NCBI GenBank assembly: GCA_040752695.1
Contig: JBFMGO010000003.1
Span: 47,407-111,406 of the forward strand
DNA length: 64,000 nucleotides
Source: a bacterium
GTDB taxonomy: Bacteria; SZUA-182; DTGQ01
Reading direction: 5' to 3'
In this document: positions 35,374 through 53,009 of the stretch, piece after piece
How the letters are laid out: the number at the start of each line of letters is the position of its first letter
Position numbering within the stretch: position 1 is the stretch's first letter
Translations under genes and position numbers: made by a program
Notes under the pieces: generated by a model
The model's input: only the letters and a program-made list of their open reading frames with translations
Database searches by the model: none
What the model was told of the DNA's origin: nothing

Positions 35374-37737
35374 TTAATCCAGGCAGGAAGGCTTCCCTAG
35401 AAATTTCCGGAAAATGCAAAGAGCATCGAGTGGGGTAACTTTGCCATTATCATCCACATCAGCGCAATCGGAGCAGGAGCCGGAGCCAAGATAGCACCTG
35501 AAAGCGATCAGAGCATCCCCAGGAGTGACACTGCCATCTTCGTTAAGATCCTCATCGCACTTGATGCAGAAGCATCCTCCTGTTGAGGAAAATTCAACCA
35601 GATGATCCTCCAGATTCTCCAATTGCAAAGGATAGCAGCTATTATTTTGACCACCTATTACCATGAACTTCAACCACACCAGGCGGCCGCTTGCACCTCT
35701 AGGGATTTGATGCTCGTCGGTATATCCTCCCACTCTCAGTCTGTTCCAATCGATCGGGTGAACCTCAACCGTTTCAAAAGAGCTTGTCAGGTCTCCCCGC
35801 TCTACCTCTATGTATTCCAGAACAGCCGGATCATACGTCACTTCAAAGCCAAAGCTATTAACCTCATTGGATGCGGATTGAATTCTTACGGGAATTGTAA
35901 CCTCTTGGCCGATTCTCCCATTACTCCGTTCGATATCCAATGTCCCTAGGTCATTTTCCTCACAGCCATCGTCTGGACCTACAGAATTATACTCATAGGC
36001 TCCTATATCAGTAACAGCCACACCGTCACTGTCACCATCCTGGGGCCTTGGCGTTCCATCCAGATCCGCATCCGGTGCACCCTCATGAGTACCTGCGTCG
36101 ATACAGGGTGAACCAGGGTTAAGGTGATAGTCGTCAGCAGAAGGGTTAACGAATGAAGGATCGGCATCGATGTTAGCCGTGCCATCCCATCCGCCTTCGA
36201 TATCGGAGTAGGTGATATTGAATGCGCCGCTGTATTCAAGTAATTGACCTCCGGTATTTCCCCGGATAATGCAATTGGTTATATCAGCATAGCCAGCCAG
36301 AGCTATGCCGCCTCCATTCTCCGATGGGGCATGATTCTCGCAAATAGTAGAGTTGATAATCAGGGCATGACTGCTATCGGTGATCTGAATCCCGCCGCCC
36401 GCTATCGTTCCGCCTGAATCGTTGGCTGTATTGTGAATGATCAGGCAATTCCTGACCATGGCTTCAGCCGCACTCATGGATATTCCGCCTCCATCGTCCT
36501 GGGCTTCGTTACCACGAATGACGCTGTTTTCTATGGTAACAGGCGTGTCGTTGCCTGCCATGCCAAAGTGAATTCCTCCACCGAATATCGCAGCGGTATT
36601 CTCTGCAATGGTGCAGCCGGTGATAGTCGGCGAGGAATACTCCGTATAAATCCCGCCGCCATAGCTTTCAGAAGAATTATGAATAATAGTGCAATTGACG
36701 ATACTTGCCAAAGAAGAGCCGTAGCAGGTAATTCCACCACCCCAGGAAGCTGAATTTTCCTGAATGGTGCAGTTTTCGATACGCGGGGAGGAGAAACAGC
36801 GAATCCCGCCACCATAGGCAGCCGAATTCCCCTGAATGGTGCAATCGGAGATAATTGGTGAGGGGTTGGACTCGCAACTGATTCCTCCCCCATCGTGGGA
36901 GGCCGAATTCATACTGAAAGTGCAATGAGTAATGGTCAGGGAGGAATCGGGAGGGAAATCGGCAGATACGCACTGGATTCCGCCGCCGTCATCGGTGGCT
37001 GAATTTTCCGTAAAGGTGCAGCCGGTGATGATTGGCGAGGAGTTATTGCTATAGATTCCGCCGCCGTAATCGGCGGCATTTTGATAAAAGGTGCAGTCGG
37101 TAATGGCTGGTGAACAGAGGTCAAAGCAGGTAATTCCACCACCGTAGCTGCCTTGATTCGCACTTATGGTACAGTTGGCGATGGTTGGCGATGACGAGGA
37201 TAGACAGCGAATTCCGCCACCCCAGTCAGCTGTATTTCCGGTAATCGTACAATGAGTGATAGTTGGGGAAGAGGAAACGCAACTGATTCCGCCACCTTCG
37301 CCTGCATGACCATTTTGCACGGTAAATCCAGCCAGGATAGAGTCGCTGCCCTCACCGCTTTCGAACGTGATCACGGTCGCTTCCAGATTACTGCCATCGA
37401 TAATGGTAGCGGCCACTACATTCGGATCATCAGGATTGGTACTCGTGAGCGTTATTGCCTTACCCTGAAAGGAAATGCGCTCATAATACACGCCGGGGTC
37501 CACGACAATCACATCGCCATCTGCGGCAGCATCGATGGCTACCATAATACTCTCGCCATCATGAACATGTACCTCTGCTGCTTCCACTCTGGGCGCATGA
37601 ACTGTCAATACTCCAAGCGTACTGAGCATGCCCAGCAAACCCAGGATGCCCAGCCTACTCAGTATATTCAGTCTATCCAATTTATTCAGCATATCCATTA
37701 ATCTAAAAACAATACCTGACGGTATTCTTTTTCCCAT
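35374..37737 (-). CDS. Secreted right-handed beta-helix repeat protein with C-terminal cohesin and dockerin-like domains
   Basis: Repeated NxAxxGGGI.C...SPxIxxC; DYHL..GSPCIDAG; DIGAYE; VTIPVRI...FGFEVTYD; two D-x-N/D-x-D/N-G-x-V-T-P-x-D-A-L repeats; start placed at ATG 37737 after aggag. Confidence 0.87.
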   Translation of the reverse strand: MGKRIPSGIVFRLMDMLNKLDRLNILSRLGILGLLGMLSTLGVLTVHAPRVEAAEVHVHDGESIMVAIDAAADGDVIVVDPGVYYERISFQGKAITLTSTNPDDPNVVAATIIDGSNLEATVITFESGEGSDSILAGFTVQNGHAGEGGGISCVSSSPTITHCTITGNTADWGGGIRCLSSSSPTIANCTISANQGSYGGGITCFDLCSPAITDCTFYQNAADYGGGIYSNNSSPIITGCTFTENSATDDGGGIQCVSADFPPDSSLTITHCTFSMNSASHDGGGISCESNPSPIISDCTIQGNSAAYGGGIRCFSSPRIENCTIQENSASWGGGITCYGSSLASIVNCTIIHNSSESYGGGIYTEYSSPTITGCTIAENTAAIFGGGIHFGMAGNDTPVTIENSVIRGNEAQDDGGGISMSAAEAMVRNCLIIHNTANDSGGTIAGGGIQITDSSHALIINSTICENHAPSENGGGIALAGYADITNCIIRGNTGGQLLEYSGAFNITYSDIEGGWDGTANIDADPSFVNPSADDYHLNPGSPCIDAGTHEGAPDADLDGTPRPQDGDSDGVAVTDIGAYEYNSVGPDDGCEENDLGTLDIERSNGRIGQEVTIPVRIQSASNEVNSFGFEVTYDPAVLEYIEVERGDLTSSFETVEVHPIDWNRLRVGGYTDEHQIPRGASGRLVWLKFMVIGGQNNSCYPLQLENLEDHLVEFSSTGGCFCIKCDEDLNEDGSVTPGDALIAFRCYLGSGSCSDCADVDDNGKVTPLDALCIFRKFLGKPSCLD

Positions 37738-38218
37738 GATTTTCTTCTCTCCTCGTATGGGCAAAAGTACAGATACTATAGAAATAACCAATCCGATAGC
37801 TAAAAAACATTTATGCGCTTAGGCGCTTAGCGAGTTCACATGGGTTCTTAACTGCCTGCCTTCGGTTACCATAGGCAGTCAGTTGGTCTGTCCTGAAGAA
37901 GCTTCTTCAGGAGGGGGGGGCAAGTAAAGCCTCATTGTAGTAACAGGCTGCAAGCATTCATACTTTTTCTCCCTCCTTTCCTATAAGTTAGCTTATTAAT
38001 TGGTGATTATTTCATGTGGGTAATTATTATAAATATTGATAATCAATATAATGTAAATATAATATTAATTTAACATGTTGTAGATGACTTGTCAAAAAAA
38101 ACAGATTTTTCAGAAGCGGTTAGAGTCATCATATAAAGCCATTGATTTTAGACCTATACTTGCAAGTAACTTCAACCTTTGATATATTACCACCTAATAT
38201 TTAATACATTGACCTTGA

Positions 38219-38251
38219 GTACACTGGCCGGGGAATTCCCGGCCAGTGTAC
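38219..38251. other. Perfect 14-bp-stem hairpin upstream of the D-aminoacylase gene
   Basis: gtacactggccggg / cccggccagtgtac. Confidence 0.6.
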
Positions 38252-38316
38252 CTGGCATTTTATGAAGGTGCAGAGTGAGCACTTAGCTTGACAATGAATA
38301 CTCATGGAAAGAGACC

Positions 38317-39948
38317 ATGCCTATGTATGACCTTCTGATTCGACAGGCCCAAATTGTCGATGGTATAGGTCAGCCTTCTTACGTGGCAGACATTGGGATT
38401 GCAGGAGAGCGAATAGCCTGGATCGGAGCCGCTGACACAGGGCGAGCGCCCAAAGAGGGTAGTGCCACAAGGCGAGCGCCAAACGGGAAGAGAATTATCG
38501 ACGCGAAAGGGCTTGTTCTTGCACCCGGTTTTGTGGATATGCACAGCCATTCCGATTATACTCTCCTTATCGATAACCGGGCCGAGAGTAAGCTCAGGCA
38601 GGGAGTCACTACCGAAGTGGTGGGAAACTGCGGGTACTCTGCCGCTCCCGTATACTCTCCCCTGCTTGAGGAGAGAAGGTCGGAATACGAAGGGCTTTAC
38701 GGCCTTCGGCTCGATTGGCGCACGTTTCCCGAATACCTCGAACGGGTTGAGGCTTCCTCTCCTTCCATCAACGCTGTTTTTCTCGTCGGGCACAACACGA
38801 TCCGCGCATCAGCCATGGGATTCGGTGATCTTCCGCCCTCCCGGGAGCACATGACCCGCATGGAAAGCCTGGTAGATGAAGCTCTCGACTGTGGCGCTTT
38901 TGGGTTATCTACCGGCCTTTTTTACGCTCCTGCCTGTTTTGCCCGGAAGGAGGAATTGATTCAACTGGCTAAAAGGGTCTCAAGGCGCGGGGGCATCCTG
39001 ACTTCCCATATCCGCAGTGAAGGAAAGTATCTTATCGAGGCTCTGGAAGAGATCCTGGCCATTGCCAAAGGTGCTGAAGTTCCTCTTGAAATTTCCCACC
39101 TTAAGACTTTTGGCAGGGAGAATTGGCGGAAACTGGACCAGGCCCTTGAAATGATTGAGTCAGCGCGGCATCAGGGTCTTGAGGTCACGTTCGATCGCTA
39201 CCCTTATCTGGCGGCTTCGACCAGCCTCCAATCCCTCCTGCCGGATTGGGCCCAGGCCGGCGGCCCCAGGGCCATTGTGCACAGAATCATGGATCCTTCG
39301 ACCCGGCGTAAGCTTGTTCATTATCTGCTCACCGAATACCGGGACGAGGATTACTGGGCATCGATTTTTATTTCCCTGGTAGCAGACGATGCGCATAAAG
39401 AGTGGGAAGGGCTGAATCTCACCCAACTGGCTCAGATTCAGGGGACATCTTCAGCCGAAGCTGCCCTTGATCTTCTTGTACAGGAGAGGACCCAGGTTGA
39501 GATCGTCCAGTTTGCCATGAGTGAGGAAAATCTGGCCAGGATCATCCGGCATCCTCTGGCCATGATCGGCTCGGACTCGAGTTCCAGATCCGCCGATGGC
39601 CCTTTAAGGATAGGAAAGCCACACCCCAGGGCTTTTGGCACTTTTGCACGAGTCATCCGGGAATTTTGTCTCGATAAGCGGATACTCTCCCTCGAAGAGG
39701 GAGTGCGAAAAATGACCGCCCTCCCCTGCCAGAAACTCGGCCTCAAGGATCGCGGCCAGATCAGGGAAGGGATGATTGCAGACCTTTTGCTTTTCGATCC
39801 GGAGAGTATCTTTGATCAGGCCACCTATCAAAATCCGTTCCAGTACCCTCCGGGCATACGACTGGTCATGGTGAATGGCCGGATCTGTATTGAGGAGGAT
39901 TCTTCCCTTCGTCCGGGACAGGGGAAAATCCTGCTGCGGGGACAATGA
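38317..39948 (+). CDS. N-acyl-D-amino-acid deacylase (D-aminoacylase) family amidohydrolase
   Basis: PGFVDMHSHSD, GNCG, SHIRSE, ISHLK, GSD, PHPRAFGTF. Confidence 0.92.
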   Translation: MPMYDLLIRQAQIVDGIGQPSYVADIGIAGERIAWIGAADTGRAPKEGSATRRAPNGKRIIDAKGLVLAPGFVDMHSHSDYTLLIDNRAESKLRQGVTTEVVGNCGYSAAPVYSPLLEERRSEYEGLYGLRLDWRTFPEYLERVEASSPSINAVFLVGHNTIRASAMGFGDLPPSREHMTRMESLVDEALDCGAFGLSTGLFYAPACFARKEELIQLAKRVSRRGGILTSHIRSEGKYLIEALEEILAIAKGAEVPLEISHLKTFGRENWRKLDQALEMIESARHQGLEVTFDRYPYLAASTSLQSLLPDWAQAGGPRAIVHRIMDPSTRRKLVHYLLTEYRDEDYWASIFISLVADDAHKEWEGLNLTQLAQIQGTSSAEAALDLLVQERTQVEIVQFAMSEENLARIIRHPLAMIGSDSSSRSADGPLRIGKPHPRAFGTFARVIREFCLDKRILSLEEGVRKMTALPCQKLGLKDRGQIREGMIADLLLFDPESIFDQATYQNPFQYPPGIRLVMVNGRICIEEDSSLRPGQGKILLRGQ

Positions 39949-40090
39949 CACCATCAATGGAGAAAATTGATAAACAATTGGTCACCATTGTTCGAAATTT
40001 CTACTCGTCCTGACAAGGGTCAAAAAATCATAAACTAGATATTTCAACTGGTTAGCGACAAAAATCATTTTCATTGTCAAGGGAAATTCC

Positions 40091-40105
40091 TGGCATCCAG
40101 TTTGC
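40091..40105 (+). promoter_or_regulatory. Putative sigma54 promoter of the response regulator
   Basis: TGGCATCCAGTTTGC (GG-N10-GC). Confidence 0.65.
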
Positions 40106-40186
40106 TTTTTAGTAAGCACGATACCAAAAAGCGCGATGTCCACCAATTACACCTGTTTTTATTTAACATAAAGGGGATGAACTTTT

Positions 40187-40588
40187 ATGGATGCCAAGCG
40201 AATTTTAATCGTTGATGATGAAGCCAACATGTGCAGCATTATGCAGGACATCCTGGTTGATGAGGGATATGAGGTGATGGTGGCTGAGAATGGAAGTGAA
40301 GCTCTGCAAGTCGTTCGGGATATTACCCCTGACCTGATTATTACCGATATCAATATGCCCTGCATGGGAGGGCTGGACCTGTTGCGTGAGGTAAAAAGCC
40401 TTCATCCGGATGTTCAGTTTATCATCATGACCGGCTTTGGCGAATTGGAAACGTACCTCAAGGCCATGCATAACGGGGCGTTCGATTATGTTACCAAACC
40501 ACTGAATATAGAAATGCTGAAACTCATGGTAGCCAAGGTTCTCGGTCAAAACCGGTTCTTTGCTTCCGCCTCGTTTCAGGGAAATTAG
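40187..40588 (+). CDS. Single-domain response regulator
   Basis: ILIVDDE, ITDINMP, MTG, TKP. Confidence 0.93.
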   Translation: MDAKRILIVDDEANMCSIMQDILVDEGYEVMVAENGSEALQVVRDITPDLIITDINMPCMGGLDLLREVKSLHPDVQFIIMTGFGELETYLKAMHNGAFDYVTKPLNIEMLKLMVAKVLGQNRFFASASFQGN

Positions 40589-40638
40589 AAGGCAGGAGGC
40601 GGAATTTAAGAATATCGTTACAGAGAATACTTACCTTG

Positions 40639-40680
40639 TCAGTGGTTGGCAGCCAATTATCAGTGGTTGGCAGCCAATTA
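40639..40680. repeat. Perfect 21-bp tandem duplication
   Basis: tcagtggttggcagccaatta twice. Confidence 0.85.
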
Positions 40681-40947
40681 GCGGTAGAGCCGCAGGCATA
40701 GAGCCTGCGGAGCGACCCTTTAAGGCAGTGAGGAATAGAAGGGCAATTACACGTGCGTGCAGATGGAAGATTTCCTATCCCTTATTGTTCTTGAATAATC
40801 CTTTATAGTCAGTTGCTTATCCAACCAACGGTATTCTATACTTTTATCACCAAAAAATATAATATTAATACTTGACAATCCCTCGATACCAGTTGTAAAA
40901 TCGATTGCTTTAAATTTCACAGCTTTTTTAACCGATACAGAGATTCA

Positions 40948-42039
40948 ATGAAAAAAATCGATATTAAAAAACTTTTACGAGTTGATCCAGGCCAGGCGCC
41001 TGCCTATGAAATCCCTGTTTTTCCGGAAGCGATTAAACTGGATGCCAATGAAAATCCGTATGAAATTCCAGTTGATCTTCTGGCGGAAGTCCTTCAAAAC
41101 ATCGGTCAGGTTCTTTTGAACCGGTATCCCGATCCGGGCTACGGGAAGGTGCGGCGTATTCTGTCCGGAATGTGGGGATGGCCTTATGACCGGATTATCC
41201 TGGGAAATGGATCGGATGAGTTGATTCAGGTCATCATGATCGCTTTTGGCGGGCCGGGGAAAAAGGTTTTTATTCCGACCCCCTCATTTGCCATGTATCG
41301 GATCATTGCCCGGTCTTTCGGTGACACGGTGGAGGAGATCCCTCTGTCGGAAGATTTTGACCTGGTCCTGTCAGATGCCCTTCGGGATCGTATGTATGAT
41401 CCGAGCCGGACCGGCAATCTCATTTTCCTGGCTGTACCGAACAATCCCACAGGAAATTGCTTTTCAAGATCAGTCGTTCAGGAAATCGTCGAAAATTTCC
41501 AGGGGATTGTCTGCATTGACGAAGCTTATACTGATTTTAGCGATACCAACTTTCTTGATCTTTTATCCGAACACCCTAACCTGATCATTCTCAGAACCCT
41601 TTCCAAGATCGGTTTAGCCGCGATTCGAATGGGTTTTTTACTGGCTGACGAGGCCATTATTCAAAATATCCAAAGGATAAAGCTTCCCTACAATATTAAC
41701 AGCCTGGCCGAAGCCGCAGCCAGTGTTGTTCTGTCTAAAAGAGAGGTCATCGAGGCCAGCATCTCCCAGGTCAAGAAGAACCGGACCTGGCTGCATGAAC
41801 AGATGATGCGGATTGAAGGCATCAGGGTCTACCCCTCCCGTGCTAATTTCATCCTCTTTCAGGTAAACTCGGATGCTGCGGCCCCAAAGCTGCTTGAACA
41901 ACTCCTGTCAGAGGGTATCCTGATAAGAGGCTTTGGCGATGAAGGAAGACTGAAAGGCCATTTCCGGGTAACCGTTGGCACTCAGGAAGAGTGCTCCCGT
42001 TTTGTGGAAGGGCTGAGAAAAATTCTGCGATCTCATTGA
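40948..42039 (+). CDS. hisC: Histidinol-phosphate aminotransferase
   Basis: KLDANENP, NRYPD, GNGSDE, PNNPTG, DEAY, RTLSK. Confidence 0.95.
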   Translation: MKKIDIKKLLRVDPGQAPAYEIPVFPEAIKLDANENPYEIPVDLLAEVLQNIGQVLLNRYPDPGYGKVRRILSGMWGWPYDRIILGNGSDELIQVIMIAFGGPGKKVFIPTPSFAMYRIIARSFGDTVEEIPLSEDFDLVLSDALRDRMYDPSRTGNLIFLAVPNNPTGNCFSRSVVQEIVENFQGIVCIDEAYTDFSDTNFLDLLSEHPNLIILRTLSKIGLAAIRMGFLLADEAIIQNIQRIKLPYNINSLAEAAASVVLSKREVIEASISQVKKNRTWLHEQMMRIEGIRVYPSRANFILFQVNSDAAAPKLLEQLLSEGILIRGFGDEGRLKGHFRVTVGTQEECSRFVEGLRKILRSH

Positions 42040-42148
42040 TCAAAGAGCAGGGAGTTTTGATCAATGGTATGTATACATGACAATTTAATTCAGAGCAATT
42101 TTATTATATAATATTGTTATTCATGACAATAATGAAGGTGTATAGAGT

Positions 42149-42733
42149 ATGAGCCGAAATACAACGGTTGAAAGAAAGACTACGGAAACGCAGGTTTCTC
42201 TGGAATTGAATCTTGACGGGAAAGGGGTATACGAGATCGATACCTCTATTCCTTTTATGGACCATATGCTTTCTTTGATGTGCAAGCACAGTTTTTTTAA
42301 TTTAAAACTCCAGGCCAGTGGAGATATCGAAGTCGATTACCACCACCTGGTGGAGGATCTTGGCATTACCATCGGCACTGCTTTTCGGCAGTTGCTCGAA
42401 GATAAGAGGCAGATTAGACGCTATGGAGCGGCCACGCTGCCCATGGATGAGTCACTGGCCACCGTTGCCCTTGATATTTGTTCCCGCTCCGTATTGGTTT
42501 ATAATGTAGATGTATGCGGAAAGATCGGGGATTTTGATATAGACCTGGTGGAGGAATTTTTCCGGGCTTTTGTCAGCAACAGCATGATTACCCTGCATAT
42601 CAACCTCTTTTATGGAAACAATCTGCACCATATTGCCGAAGCCATATTCAAGGCTTTCGGCCGGGCTTTAAGTCAGGCCACCCGTATTGATCCGTCTATG
42701 GAAGGGGTCCTTTCCACGAAAGGAAAGCTCTAA
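42149..42733 (+). CDS. hisB: Imidazoleglycerol-phosphate dehydratase
   Basis: DHML, DYHHLVED, PMDE, HHIAEAIFKA, STKG. Confidence 0.97.
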   Translation: MSRNTTVERKTTETQVSLELNLDGKGVYEIDTSIPFMDHMLSLMCKHSFFNLKLQASGDIEVDYHHLVEDLGITIGTAFRQLLEDKRQIRRYGAATLPMDESLATVALDICSRSVLVYNVDVCGKIGDFDIDLVEEFFRAFVSNSMITLHINLFYGNNLHHIAEAIFKAFGRALSQATRIDPSMEGVLSTKGKL

Positions 42734-42861
42734 AGAATCACAGAGCCAGACAAGAGGAAAGAGCCTGAAGAGGGAAAAGAACCAGGTGAGGGAAAAGAAC
42801 CAGACGATGAAACCACACTTGAAGGGTGAGGAATGATTCTCATCCTGGATGAGGTTGCAAA

Positions 42862-43461
42862 ATGATTGCTATCCTGGATTTTGATATGGGGAATCTGCGG
42901 AGCATCCAAAAAGGTTTCGAGCAGGTTGGTGCCTCGGCAGTGATTACTCGCGACCAGGCGAAGGTCCACTCAGCCCATAAGCTGATTCTTCCCGGAGTCG
43001 GAGCATTCCGGGACGGGATGAAGAATCTCGCTCATTACAATCTGATTCCCCTGATCCAGGAGGCCGTTGCAGAGGGGAAACCGGTCCTTGGAATATGCCT
43101 GGGAATGCAACTGCTTTTTACCGAGAGCGAAGAATTCGGCCTGACTCAGGGGCTCAATATCGTGCCCGGCAAGGTGAAGCGTTTCACGGTGAATCTGAAA
43201 ATTCCTCATATGGGCTGGAACTCGATCGAGATAAAAAATCAAGTTCCTCTTTTTCAGAATTCCAGTAACGGAGAATACTTTTATTTCGTCCATTCTTACT
43301 ACGTTGAGCCGGAAAACCCGGACTGCATCGCAGCCACAACTGAATATGGAATTCCGTTTACTTCAGCCATTTGTCAGGGTACACTGTTTGCCACTCAATT
43401 TCATCCTGAAAAAAGTCAGTCCAGCGGATTAAAGATCCTGAAGGCTTTTGCCGGGCTGTAG
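42862..43461 (+). CDS. hisH: Imidazole glycerol phosphate synthase glutaminase subunit
   Basis: LPGVGAF, GICLGMQ, PHMGWN, YFVHSY, QFHPEKS. Confidence 0.97.
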   Translation: MIAILDFDMGNLRSIQKGFEQVGASAVITRDQAKVHSAHKLILPGVGAFRDGMKNLAHYNLIPLIQEAVAEGKPVLGICLGMQLLFTESEEFGLTQGLNIVPGKVKRFTVNLKIPHMGWNSIEIKNQVPLFQNSSNGEYFYFVHSYYVEPENPDCIAATTEYGIPFTSAICQGTLFATQFHPEKSQSSGLKILKAFAGL

Positions 43462-43579
43462 CAGTCTCCCGTAGAAGAAAGTACTCTATTTACATTATGA
43501 AACAGTATTATCGTATATCATTAGTCTGTGTATCTGTATTATTGCCCATGCATCGAAGGGCATTTTCGGGGGGATAAAA

Positions 43580-44326
43580 ATGCTTATTATACCGGCCATT
43601 GACCTTATAAATGGGGAATGTGTTCGTTTATTTCAAGGGAGAGAGGAGGAAAAAACGGTATTTTCTTCCTCTCCGCTGGAAATAGCCAGAGACTGGCAGG
43701 AGCGGGGTGCAGAGCTCATCCATATCGTAGATCTGGACGGAGCTTTTTCCGGAAGCCCGCAGAATCTTTCGACCATCATGCGGATCGTTCAGGAATTGGA
43801 CATTCCGATCGAGGTGGGTGGTGGAATCCGGACTTCGGCCATGGCCAGAACTATTTTGGATTCCGGAGTTGAGCGGGTCGTCCTCGGGACCATCGCTTTC
43901 ATAGAGCCCATGCAGGTCAAGATTCTGTGTCAGGAGTATCCCGGACGTATTTCACTGGGAATCGATACCAAAGACGGCAAGGTAGCCATTCACGGATGGA
44001 AGGACACAACCCATGCCCAGGCACTCGAATTCTGCCAGCAGATTGCGGACTGGGGTGTCCGGAATATCATTTTTACTGACATCCGAACTGACGGGACCTT
44101 GCAGGGACCCAATATCGAAGCCATCAAGACTATGGTTGAAAATGTCGATATTCCACTCATTGCCTCTGGGGGCGTATCCGGTATGGATGATTTAAGGAAC
44201 CTGTCTGAACTGGAACCCCTGGGTCTTGAAGGGGTCATCATTGGCAAGGCGATTTATACAGGCGGTGTTAACCTGCGAGAGGCGATCAGGTTGTATCAAG
44301 CCCACAGACCAAGCCAGGTGCATTGA
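43580..44326 (+). CDS. hisA: ProFAR isomerase
   Basis: IIPAIDL, HIVDLDGA, VGGGIR, TDIRTDG, IASGG. Confidence 0.97.
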   Translation: MLIIPAIDLINGECVRLFQGREEEKTVFSSSPLEIARDWQERGAELIHIVDLDGAFSGSPQNLSTIMRIVQELDIPIEVGGGIRTSAMARTILDSGVERVVLGTIAFIEPMQVKILCQEYPGRISLGIDTKDGKVAIHGWKDTTHAQALEFCQQIADWGVRNIIFTDIRTDGTLQGPNIEAIKTMVENVDIPLIASGGVSGMDDLRNLSELEPLGLEGVIIGKAIYTGGVNLREAIRLYQAHRPSQVH

Positions 44327-44347
44327 AATTAAAATGGTGACTCGACT

Positions 44348-45106
44348 ATGTTAGCCAAAAGAATTATTCCCTGTCTGGATATCAAAGATGGCCGGGTAGT
44401 AAAGGGAGTCAGCTTTATCAACCTCCGGGATGCAGGAGACCCGGTTGATGTAGCCAGGATTTACGAGTCGGAGCAGGCGGATGAGATTGTATTCCTTGAC
44501 ATCACCGCCTCACACGAAAAGCGGGACATCATTCTTGAGGTAGCCAGGAGGACTTCCGAAATGGTATTTATGCCTCTCACCATCGGCGGAGGTATTCGGA
44601 CTCTCAAGGATATAGAGCGACTTTTAAAGGCCGGAGCGGATAAGGTCTCCATCAATACCTCGGCGGTTGAAAACCCGCAACTGGTCCGCCTGTCTGCCGA
44701 ATACTTCGGCAGCCAGTGTATTGTCGTGGCTATCGATGCCAAGAAAAACGGTCCATCCTCATGGGAAGTATTTACGCACGGCGGCAGGACTCCGAAGGGA
44801 ATCGATGCTCTGGCCTGGGCCAAAGAGGTCGAGTCCCTGGGCGCCGGAGAAATCCTTTTGACCAGCATGGATCAGGACGGCCAGCAGAACGGCTATGATC
44901 TTGCCATGGTACGGACCATTTCCGAAGGCGTCCAGATCCCGGTCATCGCTTCGGGCGGAGCAGGCACTCTTGAGCATCTTTACCAGGCATTTACCGAAGG
45001 AAAAGCGGATGCTGTTCTGGCAGCATCGATCTTCCACTACCGCACCTTTACCATTTCCCAGGCCAAAGCCTACTTGAAAGAGCGGAACATCCCTGTTCGA
45101 ATGTGA
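44348..45106 (+). CDS. hisF: Imidazole glycerol phosphate synthase cyclase subunit
   Basis: [40 protein letters not shown]. Confidence 0.97.
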
Positions 45107-45424: not shown

Positions 45425-46345
45425 TTACACAACTGGTGTTGCCAAGGTCACCTCAAAAGATCCTGTCTCGAGGATAGTAAAAGGATTCTTCGTCAACGTA
45501 TAATTACCAGCTCCCTCAGTCGGCGAGAGGACAGTGCCGACAATTTCAAGATCAATCGGCTGACCGCCAAGACCAGTGGCGGTGCCGTTGAGAATCACTT
45601 GATTATTGAGCCGCTGACCGCTTACTTCAACCAGGGTCGGAAGTGTGGCATTACCTACCAGCTGAACATAACCGTAAAGCAGGGTAGGTGTAATGGGATC
45701 CTCAATCAGGTTGATGGTTATAATGCCGCTTGCCACACCACTCGACCAGACTCCTTCCCATGTACCCGCTTGCTCGGTTAACCCATTCGTTAATCCGCCA
45801 AGGCTTGCTCCGTACAGCCCGCCAAAGAGGCTGCTGTATAAGCTACTATAAAGGCTGCTGCCATATAAACCACCATACAGCCCGCCGCCGCCATACAATC
45901 CACCGTATCCACCGTAGAGACCGCCGCCCAATAATCCACTATAGAGCCCGCCTAAGAGGCTGCTGCCGTATAGGCCGCCCAGGAGGCTGCTGCCATATAG
46001 GCCGCCCAGGAGGCTGCTGCCGTATAAACCGCCATACAGCCCGCCGCCCCCATACAATCCACCATATCCACCGTAGAGACCGCCGCCCAATAATCCACCA
46101 TACAGTCCGCTATAGAGGCTGCTGCCGTATAGGCCGCCCAGGAGGCTGCTGCCGTATAAACCGCCATACAGCCCGCCGCCCCCATACAATCCACCATATC
46201 CACCGTAAAGACTGCCGCCCAATAATCCGCCGCCATAACTATAGTAGGCACGTGCAGTTCCATGGGACATCATCATGAGAGCAAAGAGCAGGAAAAAGGA
46301 AAAGACAAGAAGAGTATGACGGGCATGTTGGGTAGAAGAATTCAT
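45425..46345 (-). CDS. Secreted Gly/Tyr/Leu/Ser-rich repeat protein with a C-terminal beta-rich domain
   Basis: Signal peptide ending ARA; about 150 aa of GGLYG / GSSLL repeats; C-terminal EQAGTWEGVW domain; RBS aaggag upstream. Confidence 0.8.
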   Translation of the reverse strand: MNSSTQHARHTLLVFSFFLLFALMMMSHGTARAYYSYGGGLLGGSLYGGYGGLYGGGGLYGGLYGSSLLGGLYGSSLYSGLYGGLLGGGLYGGYGGLYGGGGLYGGLYGSSLLGGLYGSSLLGGLYGSSLLGGLYSGLLGGGLYGGYGGLYGGGGLYGGLYGSSLYSSLYSSLFGGLYGASLGGLTNGLTEQAGTWEGVWSSGVASGIITINLIEDPITPTLLYGYVQLVGNATLPTLVEVSGQRLNNQVILNGTATGLGGQPIDLEIVGTVLSPTEGAGNYTLTKNPFTILETGSFEVTLATPVV

Positions 46346-46616
46346 CAGATAATCTCCTTATTACAGAGCGCAGAGAACTTTATCACTGAGCACAGGAACC
46401 CGAGAAAGCACATGAACCTCATTACAGAACACAGGAACTTCATCACAGAGAGCAAGAGAACCTAAAGGAAAAACAATCGTACCGCCTGTCCCCCATTAAC
46501 CTGACACTACATCTTCCAACCACTCACCACTCTCGGATGCTGTACACCTCCTTCAAGCATTTCAAGGGGCTTGATCCTTAATCGATTTACCGTTAGCTTC
46601 ATACTGGTCTTTTCAA

Positions 46617-46631
46617 GCAATATCGATACCA
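46617..46631 (-). promoter_or_regulatory. Putative sigma54 promoter of the Gly/Tyr-rich protein
   Basis: TGGTATCGATATTGC (GG-N10-GC). Confidence 0.6.
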
Positions 46632-46903
46632 GGGGCGGGGAGGCAATTCGTAAGGCAGATAATCCGATATCTTTTCACTGTTTTGATCGGAGAGACCCCT
46701 CAGGTGTTTTTACCCTGGCAGGGCTGTCATAAAAGCTGTAATTTCTGTGTATAATATTTATAAGTAACCTCCTTCACTCTCCCGCAAGGCGCCTTGAGGG
46801 AAGGAGAATGAGCTGCTCAAACACAACCGATTGCTCTGCGCCGCGCTTATCCCTGTGTCTTTGAGTGCCTGGTATGGCTGCTTTTGTATTATCGCTTACG
46901 GTT

Positions 46904-49015
46904 TCATTGCATCGTTAGTGAGTTGACGATCGACCGCACTGATTCGGCCTGTGGGTGATAAGGATTAAGGCGCAGAACCTCACGGTAGTGCTCCACTGCT
47001 TTTGGGTAATCCTGAAGGCGGTAGAAGAGTCCGGCAAGGCTGAAGTGGATATCCGCAGGATGAATCGGGGATTGTGGCACTTCCCCGGTCAGGCGGAGAG
47101 CTTCCTGGTAATTGACAAGGGCACTTTTAAAGTCTCCCAGGAGCTCGCTGGCAATGGCCAGATAGAAATAGCCTCGCGGGTCTTTGGGTGAAATTCCGGT
47201 GACCCGGCTATATTGCTCTTTTGCCATCCGGTAGCCTTCCAGAGTGCCATAGCAAAGGTAAACCTTGCCCAGGGAGAAATAGGCAGGTGCAAAGGACGGC
47301 TCCTGTTTGATGATAGAAGAAAACGTTTCTTCCGCAGCCTTTAGCTGGTTGGTCTGGGCATAGGCGACTCCCAGATTATGCTCGATCCTGAGCGACTGGT
47401 CCTGCTCGTTACTCCACATTCTGGCCTGATACAGGTAGACGATGGCTTGCTGGGGATTTCCCTCATCGAGCAAAACGCTGCCCATTCCAAGCAGTGCCGG
47501 AGCAAACTGAGCTTCCAGCCGGATCGCCTGTAAAAAGAGTTCCCTGGCCTTTTGCAGGCTCTCTTCCCGCTCTTGCGGACCGGGTGTTTTTTGGGCCTCG
47601 ATCATATAGGTATTGGCCAAAAAGGTAGCAGCCCAGTGGTTATTGGGGTCTTGAGCCAGGGCATCTTCCCATAAAGAGCGGTCATCACGCCAGACACGGT
47701 TTCTGGCCAGGGTCAGGGAGCAGTACGACACAATAACTCCGGCCAAAAGAAGTATACAGACAGCCTGAAGCAGCCCCCTGCTTTCCCTCGATCGCGCCCA
47801 CCTGATGCAGGCGAAGGCAATGAGCCCAAAAGCCAGCCCGTATCCCACAGAGGGCAGGTACATATACCGGTCCGCCATCTGGGTGCTGGTAGGAACCAGA
47901 TTGGCCACCGGCAAAAGAGTGATCAAAAACCAGATGCCGGGAAAAGCCAGATGTCTCTTCCCCCTCCACCACAAAAGGACCAATCCGCCCAGAAAGAGCA
48001 AAAGCAAAAGCGCATACACAAAATAGGAAGGGGTGATGAGGTCGGAACTCTTGAGCACCCGGAATACATAACGGCTGGACAGACCAAGGGGAAGGATCAG
48101 TTTCCCAAGGTAGAGAACCAGAACCTTTACGGTTAAAAGGAGTGAGAGCAGGAAAGAGTCTCCCACATAATGCATAACCTGAGCGGTCTGGGCCCGGTAG
48201 GTAGCTGCTGCCAAAAGACCGGCGAGAAGAAAAAAGGGAATAATCGCCTTCCACCGGAGCGGGTCCTCCTTTTCATGAAAGCAGAACTCCAGCAGCACAA
48301 GAATCAGGGGCAGCGTTACCGTCACCGGCTTGGCGAGTAAAGCCAGGCCAGCCCCCCCTACAGAACAGGCATACCAGGGCCAGTGCCAGGACCGGCGCTG
48401 ACTTGTCTTCTTTCGGAATCGGCTGTACGCATACAGTGAGAGGAAGAAGAAAAAGGCCGAGAGAACATCTTTTCGCTGTGAGATCCAGACCACGGACTCC
48501 ACGTGAATCGTATGTACCGCGAAAATGGCTCCTGCCGCAAGGGCAACCCCATAGATCCGGTACCACTCGAAGATAAGGAGAAAGACCAGAATACTGTTGA
48601 GAATATGCAGCAGGATGTTTACCATCCTGTAGCCTTCAGGCCGGAATTTCCAGAAGTGATAATCCACCTGGTAGGAAAGGATATGGAGCGGAGCATAATT
48701 CTTGAAATAGGAACGGGTGAAGAGGGTCTTCAGATTGGACCAGGAGAAGGAACGGATATAAGGATTATCCTGAACATACAACTGGTCATCCCACTGGAGG
48801 AGAGAGTTTTTAACCGAATTGGAAAAGCAGATGCTGCAAAGAAACGCCAAAAGCACAACGGCCAGTATGAGCCGGCCAGTCGAAATCCGGGAAACACTGA
48901 CAGAAGGATTGATATATGGCAGCGAAGATGGTGATAAAACTGGATGAGACGATTTCATCCGCACGACCTCCCCTTTTTCCCTCATCCCCTTCAATGTGAA
49001 GCGCATATTTTTCAC
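46904..49015 (-). CDS. TMTC-like GT-C membrane glycosyltransferase with C-terminal TPRs
   Basis: WDD, YAPL, NILLH, HVESVVWISQRKD, ADRYMYLPS, RNRVW, then TPRs. Confidence 0.85.
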   Translation of the reverse strand: MKNMRFTLKGMREKGEVVRMKSSHPVLSPSSLPYINPSVSVSRISTGRLILAVVLLAFLCSICFSNSVKNSLLQWDDQLYVQDNPYIRSFSWSNLKTLFTRSYFKNYAPLHILSYQVDYHFWKFRPEGYRMVNILLHILNSILVFLLIFEWYRIYGVALAAGAIFAVHTIHVESVVWISQRKDVLSAFFFFLSLYAYSRFRKKTSQRRSWHWPWYACSVGGAGLALLAKPVTVTLPLILVLLEFCFHEKEDPLRWKAIIPFFLLAGLLAAATYRAQTAQVMHYVGDSFLLSLLLTVKVLVLYLGKLILPLGLSSRYVFRVLKSSDLITPSYFVYALLLLLFLGGLVLLWWRGKRHLAFPGIWFLITLLPVANLVPTSTQMADRYMYLPSVGYGLAFGLIAFACIRWARSRESRGLLQAVCILLLAGVIVSYCSLTLARNRVWRDDRSLWEDALAQDPNNHWAATFLANTYMIEAQKTPGPQEREESLQKARELFLQAIRLEAQFAPALLGMGSVLLDEGNPQQAIVYLYQARMWSNEQDQSLRIEHNLGVAYAQTNQLKAAEETFSSIIKQEPSFAPAYFSLGKVYLCYGTLEGYRMAKEQYSRVTGISPKDPRGYFYLAIASELLGDFKSALVNYQEALRLTGEVPQSPIHPADIHFSLAGLFYRLQDYPKAVEHYREVLRLNPYHPQAESVRSIVNSLTMQ

Positions 49016-49187
49016 ACTATGAAATAGCTTATCAGATTTTTCTTTTTTTCGCCAATAGTTCTCGATCCAAAAAATCAGTATCGATCTGTAAACAATGTTT
49101 ACTTTCGATATACCGAGTTTACGCTCGTATCTACCCTCCGTGAGACGTAAAAATATTAGAACTAATTGAAATAGTCAAGTATTTACA

Positions 49188-49228
49188 AGATCAAGGCAGG
49201 GAGATCGAAAATCTCCCTGCCTTGATCT
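49188..49228. other. Perfect 18-bp-stem hairpin between divergent genes
   Basis: agatcaaggcagggagat-cgaaa-atctccctgccttgatct. Confidence 0.65.
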
Positions 49229-49303
49229 CCACTTGTGGTTTCGCCTGTATTTCATGGGTATTGTATTGGTATCTTATTTGTATCCCCTCCTGTTTATGCC
49301 AAC

Positions 49304-49318
49304 TGGCATATGGTATGC
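49304..49318 (+). promoter_or_regulatory. Putative sigma54 promoter of the VWA/cohesin protein
   Basis: TGGCATATGGTATGC (GG-N10-GC). Confidence 0.5.
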
Positions 49319-49574
49319 AAGAAGTAATCATGAAACCTTGTGGATCTGGCTTGATCAAACACCCGTCTCCTTTGCCTTTGAAAAAGCTTACAGGACGCTG
49401 GCGCATATCCGGTCCTGGCTTGTTCCTCTCGCCCTGTTCTCTCTCCCTCTCTCATTCTCTCGTCCTCTCGTCCTCATCGTTCCCCAAGGAAGAGCGTAAA
49501 TATTAATTTATGGTACATATAACGTATTCTTACACTTTACTATTATAACCCCATAAAACGAGAGGGAGGAAAAA

Positions 49575-52500
49575 ATGTCCAGAAAGATTGCCGTAAGCCT
49601 GATACTTCTTTCATTTTTCTTTGTGCAGTATGCCCATGCCCTGAGTGTGGGATCGGATGGAGGGATTACCGTAAGCTTATCGTACAGCGGTGATCTTGAC
49701 CATGATCTGGTTACGGATAACGACGGCAACCCGATCACCGACAGCTCCGGTCATCAATGGCTGGCCAAGGATAAACTGGAACACGATCTTGAGTTATTTG
49801 CCCGGCATGTCTTCGAAATGTCAGAGGAAAAGCACTATATACGACAGGTGCTTATCAGCAATGAGCAAAGGGCCTGGGCCAATGCTGATATCAGGTGGGA
49901 TATGGGGCCGGGGTCGTCTTCCGCCGCTTTAAACGGATGGTCCAACAGCTCGGCACATCTGAACATCAGAAGGGGCTGGAGAACCACTATTCACGATGTG
50001 TCTTCCCATGAATTCGGGCACTACTTTTATGGATTGTCGGATGAATATGCGAAAAATTATGGGTATTATTACGGACATTTTCCAGGCAGTGATGTCCACT
50101 TTGGAGTTAAGGTAACCATTGCAGATCCGATTACGGTCATGAATGCGAACACTCCGCATCAATTCTGCGATACGACAGATCATTCGATTACCATCGAATA
50201 TACCAATCCTTCCACCTCAACCCTGGTGACGCAAAGCCTGACTACCGCTGTAATCGACGATGGGAATCCCAATAACGACGGCCCTCTCAATGACTGGATC
50301 AATCAGTTGTTCGCGATTGACGGCTGGTCAGTCGCCTGCATCAACCAAACCGACCTGATCGGGCACCATACCGAAGGGGTGAGGCCGGTCATCGATTTTT
50401 CAGCCATGCCCGAGCTGCAACTGCATTATGTAGAGCAGGACGGCATTGCACCGGGCCGGATACTGCTCCTCGACAGGTCAGGCAGCATGGGGCATGAAGA
50501 GTATGGAATCAAGGCGAGCCAGTATGTCCAGGAGGCCGGCCTTTTCCTGTACCACAGCTCGGAAGAGACCGATTATATCGGTGCCTTCACCTACAATGAC
50601 CATGTTGACAAGCTCTTCGATTACGACCAGTACAATAGCGCCAGTACCCTGGCCAGTTTTCTCGATCCCACGGGACTGACCGATATTTCGCTGGCTCTTG
50701 AAACAGCGCTCGACTCATTCATCGATGTGCACGGAGAGGCACACGTAGCAGGAGCGGAAATATTCCTCATGTCAGACGGGAAACAGACCACGGGGGCTGA
50801 CCTTTGGATACAGGTGGATAGAGCCAGAGATCTCGGAGTAAACATTCATACCTTTTCCTATGGCGATGCGGACGAGACCACCATGCAGCAGATAGCCACC
50901 GAGACCAGCGGAGACAATCTCATTATGTCAGAAAACGATTCTGATCTGATGAACTTAAAAATGGGCATGGTGAAATCCATGGCCAGAAAACAGGGGTGGA
51001 CCTCGGTCTATAATTACTACGGCACGCTCGAGTGGAAAGCGATCAGTGACTTAATCATGTATTCGACCCTGAACTTCAAGGTTCCCGACAATTCGAAGGA
51101 TGTCAAGTTTTACCTCTTTCCTGAAGGTGCCAGCATCGCGAGCTATTCCTTTAGCATGGCGAATCCTTCTGCAACGAGCACATTTACCAGCAGCCTCGAC
51201 AATACCCAGCAAAAAGGGCGGTTTTTAGGAAAAAAGGTAAAGGGGCCTGATTCAGGCACATGGTCTGTAAATATCCTGGGAAACCGAAGACCAGCAACCT
51301 TCGCTTCTGTTGCCTTACCCGATACCCAAAGTCTGACCCAGGCCAAAGTGCATCTTCTGGCCTTTATCGATAATAAGGATATCGATGCCCGGGTATGGGT
51401 CGATGACTCTTTGATCGCCATTTCCCAGGGATATCCGAAAGTGCCTGTTTATGCTTCTATTTCAAACAAATACCTCTTAACCAAGGCAGGTGTGGTATCC
51501 CGCATTTATGCACCGGATGGCACGCTGGTGGCCGGCGTCGAGATGTCGGACAATGGAAAGAACGGGGACAGGATTGCCGAGGATGGCATCTATACCGGCC
51601 TCCTGGATGCCGCACTTCTGGCACCCAAGCCGTCATTCGCCGCCATTACCTATGTCCCGCGAATAGTGACCAGGTTTAATATCAAAGCATATTTTACCGT
51701 CACCGAATCGTCGGTTCCCGCTCCTTCCGCTGAATACGAGTATGGGACAGATTACAAATCGATTCTGAAAAGTTTCAGGCCATCCACATTTGAAGCCTAT
51801 GCGGAAACAGGAGTGGGTCTGACCCAGAATCAGAACAAACCGTACCTCGAAACCAAGGGGTTTGAAAAAATCAGGTTAGAGCGGGGGAAAATCTATCAGG
51901 AATGGATAAGCATCGCAAATGCGACACCAGGCACCGAGAGTATAAGGGTTAATCTGGGCCAGGGAGTAATCGTGCGGAAAATCGAGAGCAGCCGGGAGAG
52001 GGCCGGGAATTATCTGATTGAATTCGAAGTTGCTCAAGACGCAAGCCCAGGTAAGAAAGATCTTTTTATTCAGTTTGGCAATGAAGTTTTAACCAAAACC
52101 GGTTATGGAGAAATTGCAGCGAGTGCCGAGACTTGTGATGGCAGGGACAACGACGGTGACGGCCTGGTGGACGAAAATCTTACAAGGTCCTGTTCGACCG
52201 ACTGCGGCACGGGCAGAGAAACCTGCCAGAGGGGCCAGTGGGTTGGCTGCACCGCTCCGGCCCCGGCAGCCGAAGTCTGTGATGGCAGGGACAATGACTG
52301 TGATGGCAAAATAGATGAGGACCTCACTCAGCCCTGCCCCAATGGAGGAGGAGTGCTGACCTGTCAAAACGGTCAATGGGCTGGCTGTTTCGGGCCGCAG
52401 GAATGTAAGGAGGATGATTCAGGAAAACTGGACATCGTCGGTGTTGAGGGAAAAACAGGAGATGAAATAAAGATTCCAGTAAGGATTCAATCCGCTCCCG

Positions 52501-53009
52501 CTCAGGTCGAGGCATTCGGTTTTGAATTAACTTACGATGCAGATGTCCTTGAATATACCGGCTTTGAGCGCGGGAGTCTGGTGCAGGCTTTTCCGATGTT
52601 CGATGTCAACACCGTCGGGCCTGCCAGGCTCGTAGTGGGAGGATTAACCATCAGCGATGGTATCCCCAAAGGAGCCAGCGGCTATCTGGTATGGCTGAAA
52701 TTCAAGGTGATCGCTGGACAGGAAAACAGTCAGGAAAAGGAGTGCTTTCCTCTGGAAATTGTGGACACGACCGATGATGTGGTCAATTTTTCCGCAACCG
52801 GGGGATGCTTCTGCCTCAGCACCTGCAATGGAGACCTGAACCAGGATGGGAAAATCACTCCGTCGGATGCTCTCATTGCCTTCAAGTGTTACCTCGGATC
52901 AGGCACATGCCCTGCCTGTGCCGATGTAAACCAGGACGGAAAGGTTTCTCCGGCAGATGCTCTGTGCCTGTTTAAAAAATATCTGGGACAGGCTTCCTGT
53001 CTGGATTAG
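49575..53009 (+). CDS. Secreted CLCA-like protein: zincin domain, VWA, Ca-binding segment, Cys-rich repeats, cohesin, dockerin-like domain
   Basis: HEFGHYFYGLSDEY; LLDRSGSM MIDAS; DNGKNGDRIAEDGIYT; ExCDGRDNDxDGxxDE twice; cohesin; two dockerin-type repeats. Confidence 0.87.
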   Translation: MSRKIAVSLILLSFFFVQYAHALSVGSDGGITVSLSYSGDLDHDLVTDNDGNPITDSSGHQWLAKDKLEHDLELFARHVFEMSEEKHYIRQVLISNEQRAWANADIRWDMGPGSSSAALNGWSNSSAHLNIRRGWRTTIHDVSSHEFGHYFYGLSDEYAKNYGYYYGHFPGSDVHFGVKVTIADPITVMNANTPHQFCDTTDHSITIEYTNPSTSTLVTQSLTTAVIDDGNPNNDGPLNDWINQLFAIDGWSVACINQTDLIGHHTEGVRPVIDFSAMPELQLHYVEQDGIAPGRILLLDRSGSMGHEEYGIKASQYVQEAGLFLYHSSEETDYIGAFTYNDHVDKLFDYDQYNSASTLASFLDPTGLTDISLALETALDSFIDVHGEAHVAGAEIFLMSDGKQTTGADLWIQVDRARDLGVNIHTFSYGDADETTMQQIATETSGDNLIMSENDSDLMNLKMGMVKSMARKQGWTSVYNYYGTLEWKAISDLIMYSTLNFKVPDNSKDVKFYLFPEGASIASYSFSMANPSATSTFTSSLDNTQQKGRFLGKKVKGPDSGTWSVNILGNRRPATFASVALPDTQSLTQAKVHLLAFIDNKDIDARVWVDDSLIAISQGYPKVPVYASISNKYLLTKAGVVSRIYAPDGTLVAGVEMSDNGKNGDRIAEDGIYTGLLDAALLAPKPSFAAITYVPRIVTRFNIKAYFTVTESSVPAPSAEYEYGTDYKSILKSFRPSTFEAYAETGVGLTQNQNKPYLETKGFEKIRLERGKIYQEWISIANATPGTESIRVNLGQGVIVRKIESSRERAGNYLIEFEVAQDASPGKKDLFIQFGNEVLTKTGYGEIAASAETCDGRDNDGDGLVDENLTRSCSTDCGTGRETCQRGQWVGCTAPAPAAEVCDGRDNDCDGKIDEDLTQPCPNGGGVLTCQNGQWAGCFGPQECKEDDSGKLDIVGVEGKTGDEIKIPVRIQSAPAQVEAFGFELTYDADVLEYTGFERGSLVQAFPMFDVNTVGPARLVVGGLTISDGIPKGASGYLVWLKFKVIAGQENSQEKECFPLEIVDTTDDVVNFSATGGCFCLSTCNGDLNQDGKITPSDALIAFKCYLGSGTCPACADVNQDGKVSPADALCLFKKYLGQASCLD

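Follow-up and report, generated by a model that had tools for sequence, protein, structure and literature searches.

Background

Adaptor proteins that carry a cohesin and a dockerin in one chain have been described from Ruminococcus flavefaciens, whose strains encode 5-11 proteins with a single cohesin and a single dockerin (PMC4081043); the symmetric dockerin of one of them, ScaH, binds the cohesin of ScaH itself (PMC5301203), and this protein has been described as a variable-length spacer (PMC12484212). Here we report a comparable cohesin-dockerin module at the C-termini of two secreted proteins, the products of genes A and B, in a 64,000-nucleotide stretch (the window) of contig JBFMGO010000003.1 from a bacterium of the GTDB lineage SZUA-182; DTGQ01 (assembly GCA_040752695.1). 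On balance, and with some reserve, the sequences lead us to favour a network in which exported, disulfide-stapled cargoes would dock in trans, with anchors starting the assembly, proteins with one cohesin and one dockerin extending it, multi-cohesin proteins branching it and dockerin-only proteins capping it.

The module resembles R. flavefaciens ScaC, ScaF, ScaH and ScaI in joining one cohesin to a C-terminal dockerin in one chain. Those adaptors, however, are mostly cargo-free cellulosome parts with type III modules from a Gram-positive host, whereas the unit described here is a type-I-like tail of cargo proteins that has as many as ten Cys and belongs to a diderm bacterium with no detected glycoside hydrolases (GH) of families GH5 or GH9. 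The remark in the initial annotation of this DNA that the two domains usually sit on different proteins was overstated, as the single-chain cases in R. flavefaciens and in anaerobic methanotrophic (ANME) archaea show.

ANME, Archaeoglobus fulgidus and syntrophic sulfate reducers share with the present genome the lack of cellulose degradation and the presence of multi-cohesin proteins with dockerins and varied cargo (PMC9012536, PMC10553843), and in ANME a dockerin may be accompanied by up to 5 cohesins (PMC9012536). The available parts of the accounts of these systems do not describe the tandem as a standard cargo tail, nor anchors that are lipoproteins or end in low-complexity tails, and the supplement of PMC9012536 may list ANME tandems of a similar sort. 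The same paper regards it as an open question what cohesins and dockerins do outside cellulosomes and calls for binding experiments. The proposed "planctosome" of Nemodlikiaceae and the system of Ca. Stygibacter (Cloacimonadota) are likewise diderm systems with M12B, C25 and S8 peptidase cargoes, HYR and lamin-tail domains, and an adaptor bearing a dockerin and a cohesin (PMC6461901, PMC8542988). In those models, dockerin-only enzymes gather on one anchor or one large scaffoldin; here, by contrast, no chain has more than 3 cohesins of the family type, valency is spread over the cargoes, and these include redox proteins. With clostridial type I pairs (C. thermocellum CipA/Xyn10B, A. cellulolyticus ScaB) the module shares its folds and duplicated calcium loops. 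It differs from them in having Pro and a variable residue rather than Ser/Thr at dockerin positions 10/11, Phe at 17, disulfides and Gly at two exposed positions of the cohesin face, and no scaffoldin with a family 3 carbohydrate-binding module (CBM) or cellulase cargo was found.

Cohesin-dockerin adaptors, one that binds its own cohesin, and non-cellulosomal systems are already published; PMC11557425 and PMC2930009 are among the sources that jointly cover such adaptors, ScaH self-binding and peptidase-bearing diderm complexes. Within the openly accessible literature, subscription papers aside, we found no account of the tandem as a default cargo tail or of the Cys-rich subfamily. The docking system most likely works like a ScaH-type adaptor network fused to cargo.

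Results and discussion

One module at the C-termini of two unrelated proteins

The sole significant BLASTP similarity between the products of genes A and B lies in their last ~200 residues (56% identity over 206 columns, E 3e-69); the remaining three aligned pieces have E > 1, and the DNA of the module is 65% identical over 538 bases. Both domains score above their Pfam cut-offs in both genes, Cohesin with 37.5 bits in gene A and 40.5 in gene B (cut-off 24.1) and Dockerin_1 with 29.8 and 36.6 bits (cut-off 22.9). The initial annotation, which described one module of about 200 aa on otherwise unrelated proteins and read it as cohesin plus dockerin, is borne out on both points. The features of the two genes are as follows.

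35374..37737 (-): gene A, secreted right-handed beta-helix protein ending in cohesin-dockerin, 787 aa from ATG
35986..37578 (-), limits approximate: gene A cargo, beta-helix / polymorphic-membrane-protein repeats with a choice-of-anchor Q motif last (PF13229, NF041518)
35563..35970 (-): gene A cohesin (PF00963 above cut-off, and alignments)
35377..35562 (-): gene A dockerin, at the extreme C-terminus (PF00404 above cut-off)
49575..53009 (+): gene B, secreted CLCA-like protein ending in cohesin-dockerin, 1144 aa
50007..50021 (+): gene B, putative HExxH zinc-binding motif at residue 145 (from sequence)
50460..50945 (+): gene B vWA domain (PF00092, E 1e-13)
52266..52319 (+): gene B, MopE-type Cys/Asp repeat in the stalk ahead of the module (PF11617 above cut-off)
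52398..52817 (+): gene B cohesin, nine-strand type-I-like sandwich (model and fold matches)
52818..53006 (+): gene B dockerin, with two Ca-binding loops, two helices and six Cys (model and fold match)
52770..52772 (+): gene B module residue 125, end of cohesin strand 8 (charge covariation)
52851-52853 and 52941-52943 (+): gene B dockerin residues 152 and 182, covariation partners of residue 125

An AlphaFold2 model of the module, made from an alignment of 55 modules, has a mean predicted local distance difference test (pLDDT) score of 94.5 and a predicted template modelling (pTM) score of 0.79, and consists of a nine-strand sandwich and two helices. The cohesin part matches 5nrm_A (Z 17.7) and, among the best matches, the A. 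fulgidus cohesin 2xdh (Z 17.1), with a root-mean-square deviation (rmsd) of 1.8; type I cohesins give Z 16-17.7 at an rmsd of ~2, and those of types II and III Z 11-14. Modelled alone, the dockerin has a pLDDT of 95.7 and its best match is 4uyq_B (Z 9.2, rmsd 2.1 over 63 residues), all 24 entries listed being dockerins. These results confirm the module as a type-I-like cohesin joined to a two-loop dockerin, in which a helix follows each F-hand calcium loop. The tree, architecture and residue analyses also support the proposal, made in the initial annotation, of a distinct Cys-rich subfamily, with up to ten Cys.

The cargoes differ. That of gene A is a beta-helix, as had been proposed (PF13229 E 6e-36; NF041518 above cut-off). 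Its longest open reading frame (ORF) spans 35374-37791 (-), with a TTG start at 37791, and translation probably begins at the ATG at 37737, which is preceded by a ribosome-binding-like purine run. Gene B encodes, in order, an HExxH metalloprotease-like head, a vWA domain, a Cys-rich stalk, the cohesin and the dockerin. Its cargo has no sequence match in the PDB. Its match to the CLCA model TIGR00868 is weak (E 2e-11, 42 bits against a cut-off of 901); together with the HExxH motif and the vWA domain, this match makes the label "CLCA-like" seem fair as a resemblance.

The module family in the genome

The genome is 6.0 Mb long and 96.6% complete. Iterated hidden Markov models (HMMs) run on all of its six-frame ORFs found 40 cohesins (C) and 45 dockerins (D) in 50 ORFs across 37 contigs, and Pfam searches of the genome concur with 40 cohesin and 42 dockerin matches. 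As in adaptors, cohesin and dockerin share a single chain in 26 of the 50 ORFs (22 CD, 2 CCCD, 1 CCD and 1 CDCD), with at most 3 cohesins of the family type in any ORF; these counts include one CD cut by a contig end and one CD with a 115-residue insert between its domains. A further 18 ORFs have dockerins only and 6 have cohesins only (4 C, 2 CC). Among 24 modules of the genome identity ranges from 26 to 65% with a median of 47%, and because of this spread we judge the family to be old and shuffled. The possibility that just two copies exist, left by one recent duplication, was to be checked by an HMM count; it fails with 50 ORFs on 37 contigs at this median identity. Contamination or misassembly is likewise ruled out, by the 37 contigs, by the presence of the family in two congeneric genomes and by orthologs of gene B.

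The unit is found in 26 of the 44 dockerin-bearing ORFs. The last dockerin lies at most 10 residues from the C-terminus in 31 of these 44 and is internal or N-terminal in the other 13. Cargo enzymes include C1, C25 and M12-like peptidases, a polysaccharide deacetylase and a CO dehydrogenase with a twin-arginine motif. Two cytochromes, one diheme and one multiheme, also belong to the cargoes, and the remaining folds are vWA domains, beta-helices, pyrroloquinoline quinone (PQQ)-type propellers, HYR and CARDB repeats, a squalene-cyclase-like toroid, an alpha-2-macroglobulin and CotH.

Several individual members deserve mention. The CO dehydrogenase (L045, contig C47, 20670-22958) scores above the TIGR01702 cut-off, has the twin-arginine motif and ends in a dockerin. 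Dockerins of the family also close a GEGP diheme protein (L049 on contig C64) and a multiheme cytochrome (L053 on contig C83). In L036 (contig C130, 7897-13539) a beta-helix and an internal dockerin are followed by a full alpha-2-macroglobulin comprising MG, bait, TED and receptor-binding domains, and in L023 (contig C27, 54634-56130) a DUF333 insert parts the cohesin from the dockerin, similar split forms being present in both congeners as well, on their contigs C26 and C22; such forms bear naturally on the question of cis binding. The open end of contig C78, within a propeller protein, repeats the start of a module-ending ORF on contig C93, and the two are probably a single gene split by the assembly. 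Four cohesin-like and two dockerin-like stretches on contigs C39, C46, C59, C66 and C40 form a second, divergent set, which the Pfam searches add and the family HMMs miss.

Recognition residues, disulfides and linker

In each of the two loops, all 44 full dockerins keep Asp as residues 1 and 12. Pro10, Ala13, Leu14, Phe17 and Leu21 are dominant in both repeats, in the 26 dockerins of tandems and the 18 free ones alike; Phe17, for example, occurs in 22/26 tandem and 16/18 free dockerins in repeat 1, and in 24/26 and 16/18 in repeat 2. The initial annotation had placed a Thr-Pro pair at the recognition positions. In calcium-loop numbering the Pro is indeed at position 10, but the Thr is at position 9, so that it was off by one, and the pair 10/11 is Pro and a variable residue, mostly Ala. 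The same recognition residues in both repeats are given as a mark of dual-mode dockerins in PMC5301203, and the symmetric repeats of this family predict dual-mode binding.

The cohesins show a matching conservation. Gly41 is found in 22/25 tandem, 8/8 other free and 5/6 anchor-type cohesins, and Asp126 in 21/25, 7/8 and 6/6 respectively; Gly41, Gly81 and Asp126 are retained in all three classes. We take these residues to lie on the docking face, the 8-3-6-5 face of cohesins, by type I numbering, where the small ones would presumably seat the Phe and Leu of the dockerin. Cohesins with no dockerin behind them thus keep their face residues, and these can bind only in trans, if at all. In 50 of 55 modules a linker of 4-6 residues joins cohesin and dockerin. 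Solved type I complexes have the N-terminus of the dockerin directed away from the cohesin, and because of this geometry and the short linker docking in cis appears unlikely and binding in trans is favoured. A prediction of a two-module complex scored 0.07 against a mark of 0.42, with controls not folded, and we counted it neither for nor against binding.

Among 162 non-redundant modules, Cys co-occurrence pairs 116 with 139 (phi 0.76), 143 with 174 (0.64) and 190 with 201 (0.77, from few informative rows), and pairs 164-171 and 3-137 are assigned by elimination only. The co-occurring pairs lie within domains, which rules out inter-chain disulfides as the link between proteins, though two of the five pairs rest on elimination.

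Candidate anchors

A cohesin tree of 39 of the 40 cohesins, the truncated one being omitted, places six cohesins of the cohesin-only proteins on a single branch (97/94). In these anchor-type cohesins the Cys116/Cys139 pair is missing, and position 125 is hydrophobic in 6/6 cases. One of their carriers has two cohesins and a lipobox; in a second, a Thr/Pro linker comes with a Gly/Tyr/Ser/Phe tail; the third, an HYR protein, combines two cohesins with a Gln/Trp/Asn tail; and the fourth is a small stand-alone protein. The lipobox, Gly/Tyr/Ser/Phe-tail and HYR proteins are kept in 3/3 genomes of the genus, and in all three the HYR gene is flanked by two dockerin-only genes. In the neighbouring family the C-termini of cohesin proteins are either Tyr-rich tails or a short Cys-Phe-Ile/Val motif, and NCBIfam holds no family for 8 anchor-type proteins of relatives. 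We infer that the lipobox and the low-complexity tails anchor the cohesin-only proteins.

The gene of the two-cohesin lipoprotein lies ~3.4 kb from a type IV pilin gene. Tails of anchor-type proteins resemble the long Gly/Tyr/Leu/Ser low-complexity stretches (GGLY repeats) of a secreted protein encoded in the window at 45425-46345 (-), which has no Pfam or NCBIfam match; a crude filter found 69 such ORFs genome-wide, and their products are possible matrix or sheath proteins. A C-terminal tag of the Cys-Phe-Ile-x-Ser type, following a Gly/Ser/Asp linker, ends 16 ORFs (e.g. C66:30832-31527, C1:9264-11990 and C112:8253-13502). The tagged ORFs have no transmembrane helix, and one tag is on a divergent cohesin-like protein. 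The tag resembles what we take to be a CFI-box sorting motif.

A diderm host with no detected cellulosome

We regard the host as diderm because its genome encodes three BamA, two GspD above cut-off and seven secretins; the two GspD secretins also mark type II secretion as present. GH5 and GH9 cellulases, as well as S-layer homology (SLH) domains, gave 0 matches each in searches of the genome that detected their controls. Pfam scans of the 50 family ORFs found no CBM families, and no GH catalytic family scored above cut-off there except a lambda-carrageenase propeller model on two PQQ-type propellers. The cellulosome reading is ruled out by the zero GH5/GH9, by the lack of a CBM and by the maximum of 3 cohesins per ORF. 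The genome combines cognate-looking cohesins and dockerins on exported proteins with no detected GH5 or GH9, and the docking system is supported as non-cellulosomal as far as tested. The initial annotation had seen no glycoside hydrolase in the window.

Charge covariation between cohesin and dockerin

A mutual-information scan of ~7,400 inter-domain pairs, from which the top pairs were picked afterwards, recovered the sheet neighbours 25-99, 23-101 and 43-79. In the inter-domain ranking cohesin residue 125 stands first with dockerin residue 182 (z 6.0) and third with residue 152 (z 5.0), 152 and 182 being the equivalent position of the two dockerin loops. A basic residue at 125 goes with an acidic one at 182 in 49/60 modules as against 22/102, and with an acidic one at 152 in 39/60 as against 17/102; within the genome the figures for 182 are 5/6 and 3/18. 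Counted along strand 8, residue 125 is nine positions from Cys116, the partner of Cys139 at the linker, and so is away from the domain junction. In C. thermocellum the Ser/Thr motif of the dockerin is contacted by Gly123 and Ala125 of strand 8 (PMC5772552); this is suggestive of the same region, the register being not fixed. A half-cohesin profile search for the register returned just 2 chance spectrin matches.

We controlled for relatedness with a tree built without the covarying columns, on which independent pairs were counted; the control positions listed in this test were flat. A background scan of charge contrasts in sister pairs found no pair with enough changes. The covariation is suggestive and was chosen after the fact.

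Proposed assembly and competing explanations

In the docking network that we favour, the module would act as a calcium-dependent dockerin plug behind its cohesin socket and so equip exported cargo with an adaptor of its own. Once the proteins were exported and their disulfides formed, the dockerin of one would bind the cohesin of another. The cohesin-only proteins (the two-cohesin lipoprotein and those with aromatic low-complexity tails) would root the assembly at the envelope or matrix, the 22 proteins with one cohesin and one dockerin would extend it, each docked one offering a new socket, the four multi-cohesin proteins would branch it and the 18 dockerin-only proteins would cap it. This would yield an anchored array in which peptidases, adhesin-like proteins and redox proteins are mixed, on the outer surface or in the periplasm. 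Chaining is favoured because the complete parts list is present in one genome, because tandem and free dockerins share their recognition residues, because cohesins with no dockerin behind them keep their face residues, because the anchor-type cohesins form one branch and candidate anchors are conserved in the genus, because the linker is short, because residue 125 covaries with residues 152 and 182, and because ScaH offers a precedent for a dockerin that binds its own cohesin. Binding, its calcium dependence, the trans geometry and the chain length are inferred. A stronger version, in which a scaffold-free network extends itself as branched one-socket-one-plug chains from lipoprotein or matrix anchors, with a charge code between residue 125 and loop position 7 and with the twin-arginine CO dehydrogenase and the diheme and multiheme cytochromes as redox caps, is possible, though we hold it doubtful.

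If chaining is true, no scaffoldin is needed to build multi-enzyme surfaces, and designer scaffolds could use a cohesin-dockerin pair that is disulfide-stapled and probably orthogonal; if it is false, this is one more non-cellulosomal docking family. Either way the genus is a compact test case, with one 200-residue module, one apparent specificity class, candidate anchors, extenders, branch points and caps, and a two-residue prediction.

Several points weigh against a chaining network or limit its support. Most family ORFs start with a signal-peptide-like stretch when judged by eye, and a signal-peptide rule picks 35/50 of them as against 836/2595 background long ORFs; this rule is crude and misses plain cases. 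The genome has many paralogous beta-helix and propeller proteins without the module, so that the module is optional for such cargo. With relatedness controlled, the independent pairs for 125-152 changed 5.2 times the same way and 0.4 the other (median p 0.06), and those for 125-182 6.1 and 0.7 (median p 0.07), with the reverse-charge tests weaker still (p 0.2 and 0.6). Averaged over face-by-recognition pairs, covariation is hardly raised (z 0.17 vs -0.10), and residue 125 was not placed on a solved interface, the PDB alignments shown having ended before strand 8. The pTM of the module model does not decide whether the dockerin can reach its own cohesin, and covariation within single chains fits closed self-pairs as well as self-preferring open chains.

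Such closed self-pairs, in which the dockerin binds a cohesin of its own protein species as a closed dimer, a small ring or a cis latch opened by an anchor, would oligomerise or protect each cargo and build no long mixed chains. The charge match of 125 with 152 and 182 within single polypeptides, seen also inside one genome, needs self-preference, and the pTM of 0.79 suggests a partly fixed arrangement of the domains. A cis latch is opposed by the short linker and by the covariation of both symmetric loops, since a tethered dockerin presumably cannot flip; and the 14 cohesins that keep their face residues with no adjacent dockerin speak against self-pairing, although a closed trans dimer is still compatible with all these points. 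We consider closed self-pairs unlikely. More unlikely again is a specificity-switching adaptor like ScaC, in which tandem dockerins would bind anchor-type cohesins only and tandem cohesins dockerin-only clients only, giving assemblies 2-3 proteins deep. Such adaptors are published (PMC4081043), and the separate branch of the anchor-type cohesins, their missing Cys pair and their hydrophobic residue 125 would suit one; yet tandem and free dockerins are indistinguishable at the recognition positions, so that no second specificity class is visible, and the covariation links the tandem dockerin with the tandem cohesin.

It is very improbable that the module serves an export machine, such as type II secretion, as a tag for secretion, folding or retention, its domains no longer docking. 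The C-terminal position of the last dockerin in 31/44 ORFs and the two GspD secretins would agree with a tag, but 13/44 dockerins are internal or N-terminal, and stand-alone cohesin anchors, dockerin-only clients and conserved exposed face residues would be purposeless in a pure one. Least probable, by a little, we rate cell-to-cell adhesion, in which the modules mainly connect the organism with neighbouring cells, whether of the same species or of a partner, as proposed for ANME and sulfate reducers, an arrangement molecularly compatible with chaining. Cohesin and dockerin proteins are highly expressed in both ANME-2c/Seep-SRB2 partners (PMC10553843), and related TP-type modules occur far outside the genomes of this lineage, but one genome encodes every part needed here and a partner organism is not known.

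Distribution of the module family

The module family is matched in 14 of 20 genomes of the phylum: 34 and 44 matches fall in the two congeneric genomes, 11 in a genome of another family and 2-6 in each of ten further genomes, while six class-level relatives have 0. Outside the phylum, 1 of 21 genomes gave a match, a weak one. Gene B has orthologs in both congeners (71% and 69% identical) that keep the tail. Family-level relatives keep one locus, in which a small stand-alone cohesin gene directly precedes a C1 peptidase with a tandem tail. In a 50%-clustered protein library there are 424 matches at E 1e-30 and 3893 at 1e-10, and the best 183 include 105 CD and 21 CCD, some others ending in CDC or CDCC. 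Atlas holds clusters of ~200-residue cohesin-plus-dockerin proteins from Chloroflexota, Hydrogenedentota, Planctomycetota and Bacillota, with few taxon records, and a pattern scan of named genomes gave just 5 weak dockerin matches, in Planctomycetota. Judged from these sequences, the tandem as such is widespread and the large Cys-rich expansion is a feature of the genus.

Neighbouring genes

Genes A and B are encoded on different strands and separated by ~11.8 kb, a stretch that contains genes for an amidohydrolase and a TPR membrane protein as well as his genes; the distance, the strands and the intervening genes rule out a single operon or cluster. The genes at 40948-45106 (+) we take to be hisC, hisB, hisH, hisA and hisF-like. 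Directly downstream of gene B, at 53358-54719 and 54810-56177 (+), are two adjacent paralogous genes for flavin adenine dinucleotide-dependent oxidoreductases with signal-peptide-like starts.

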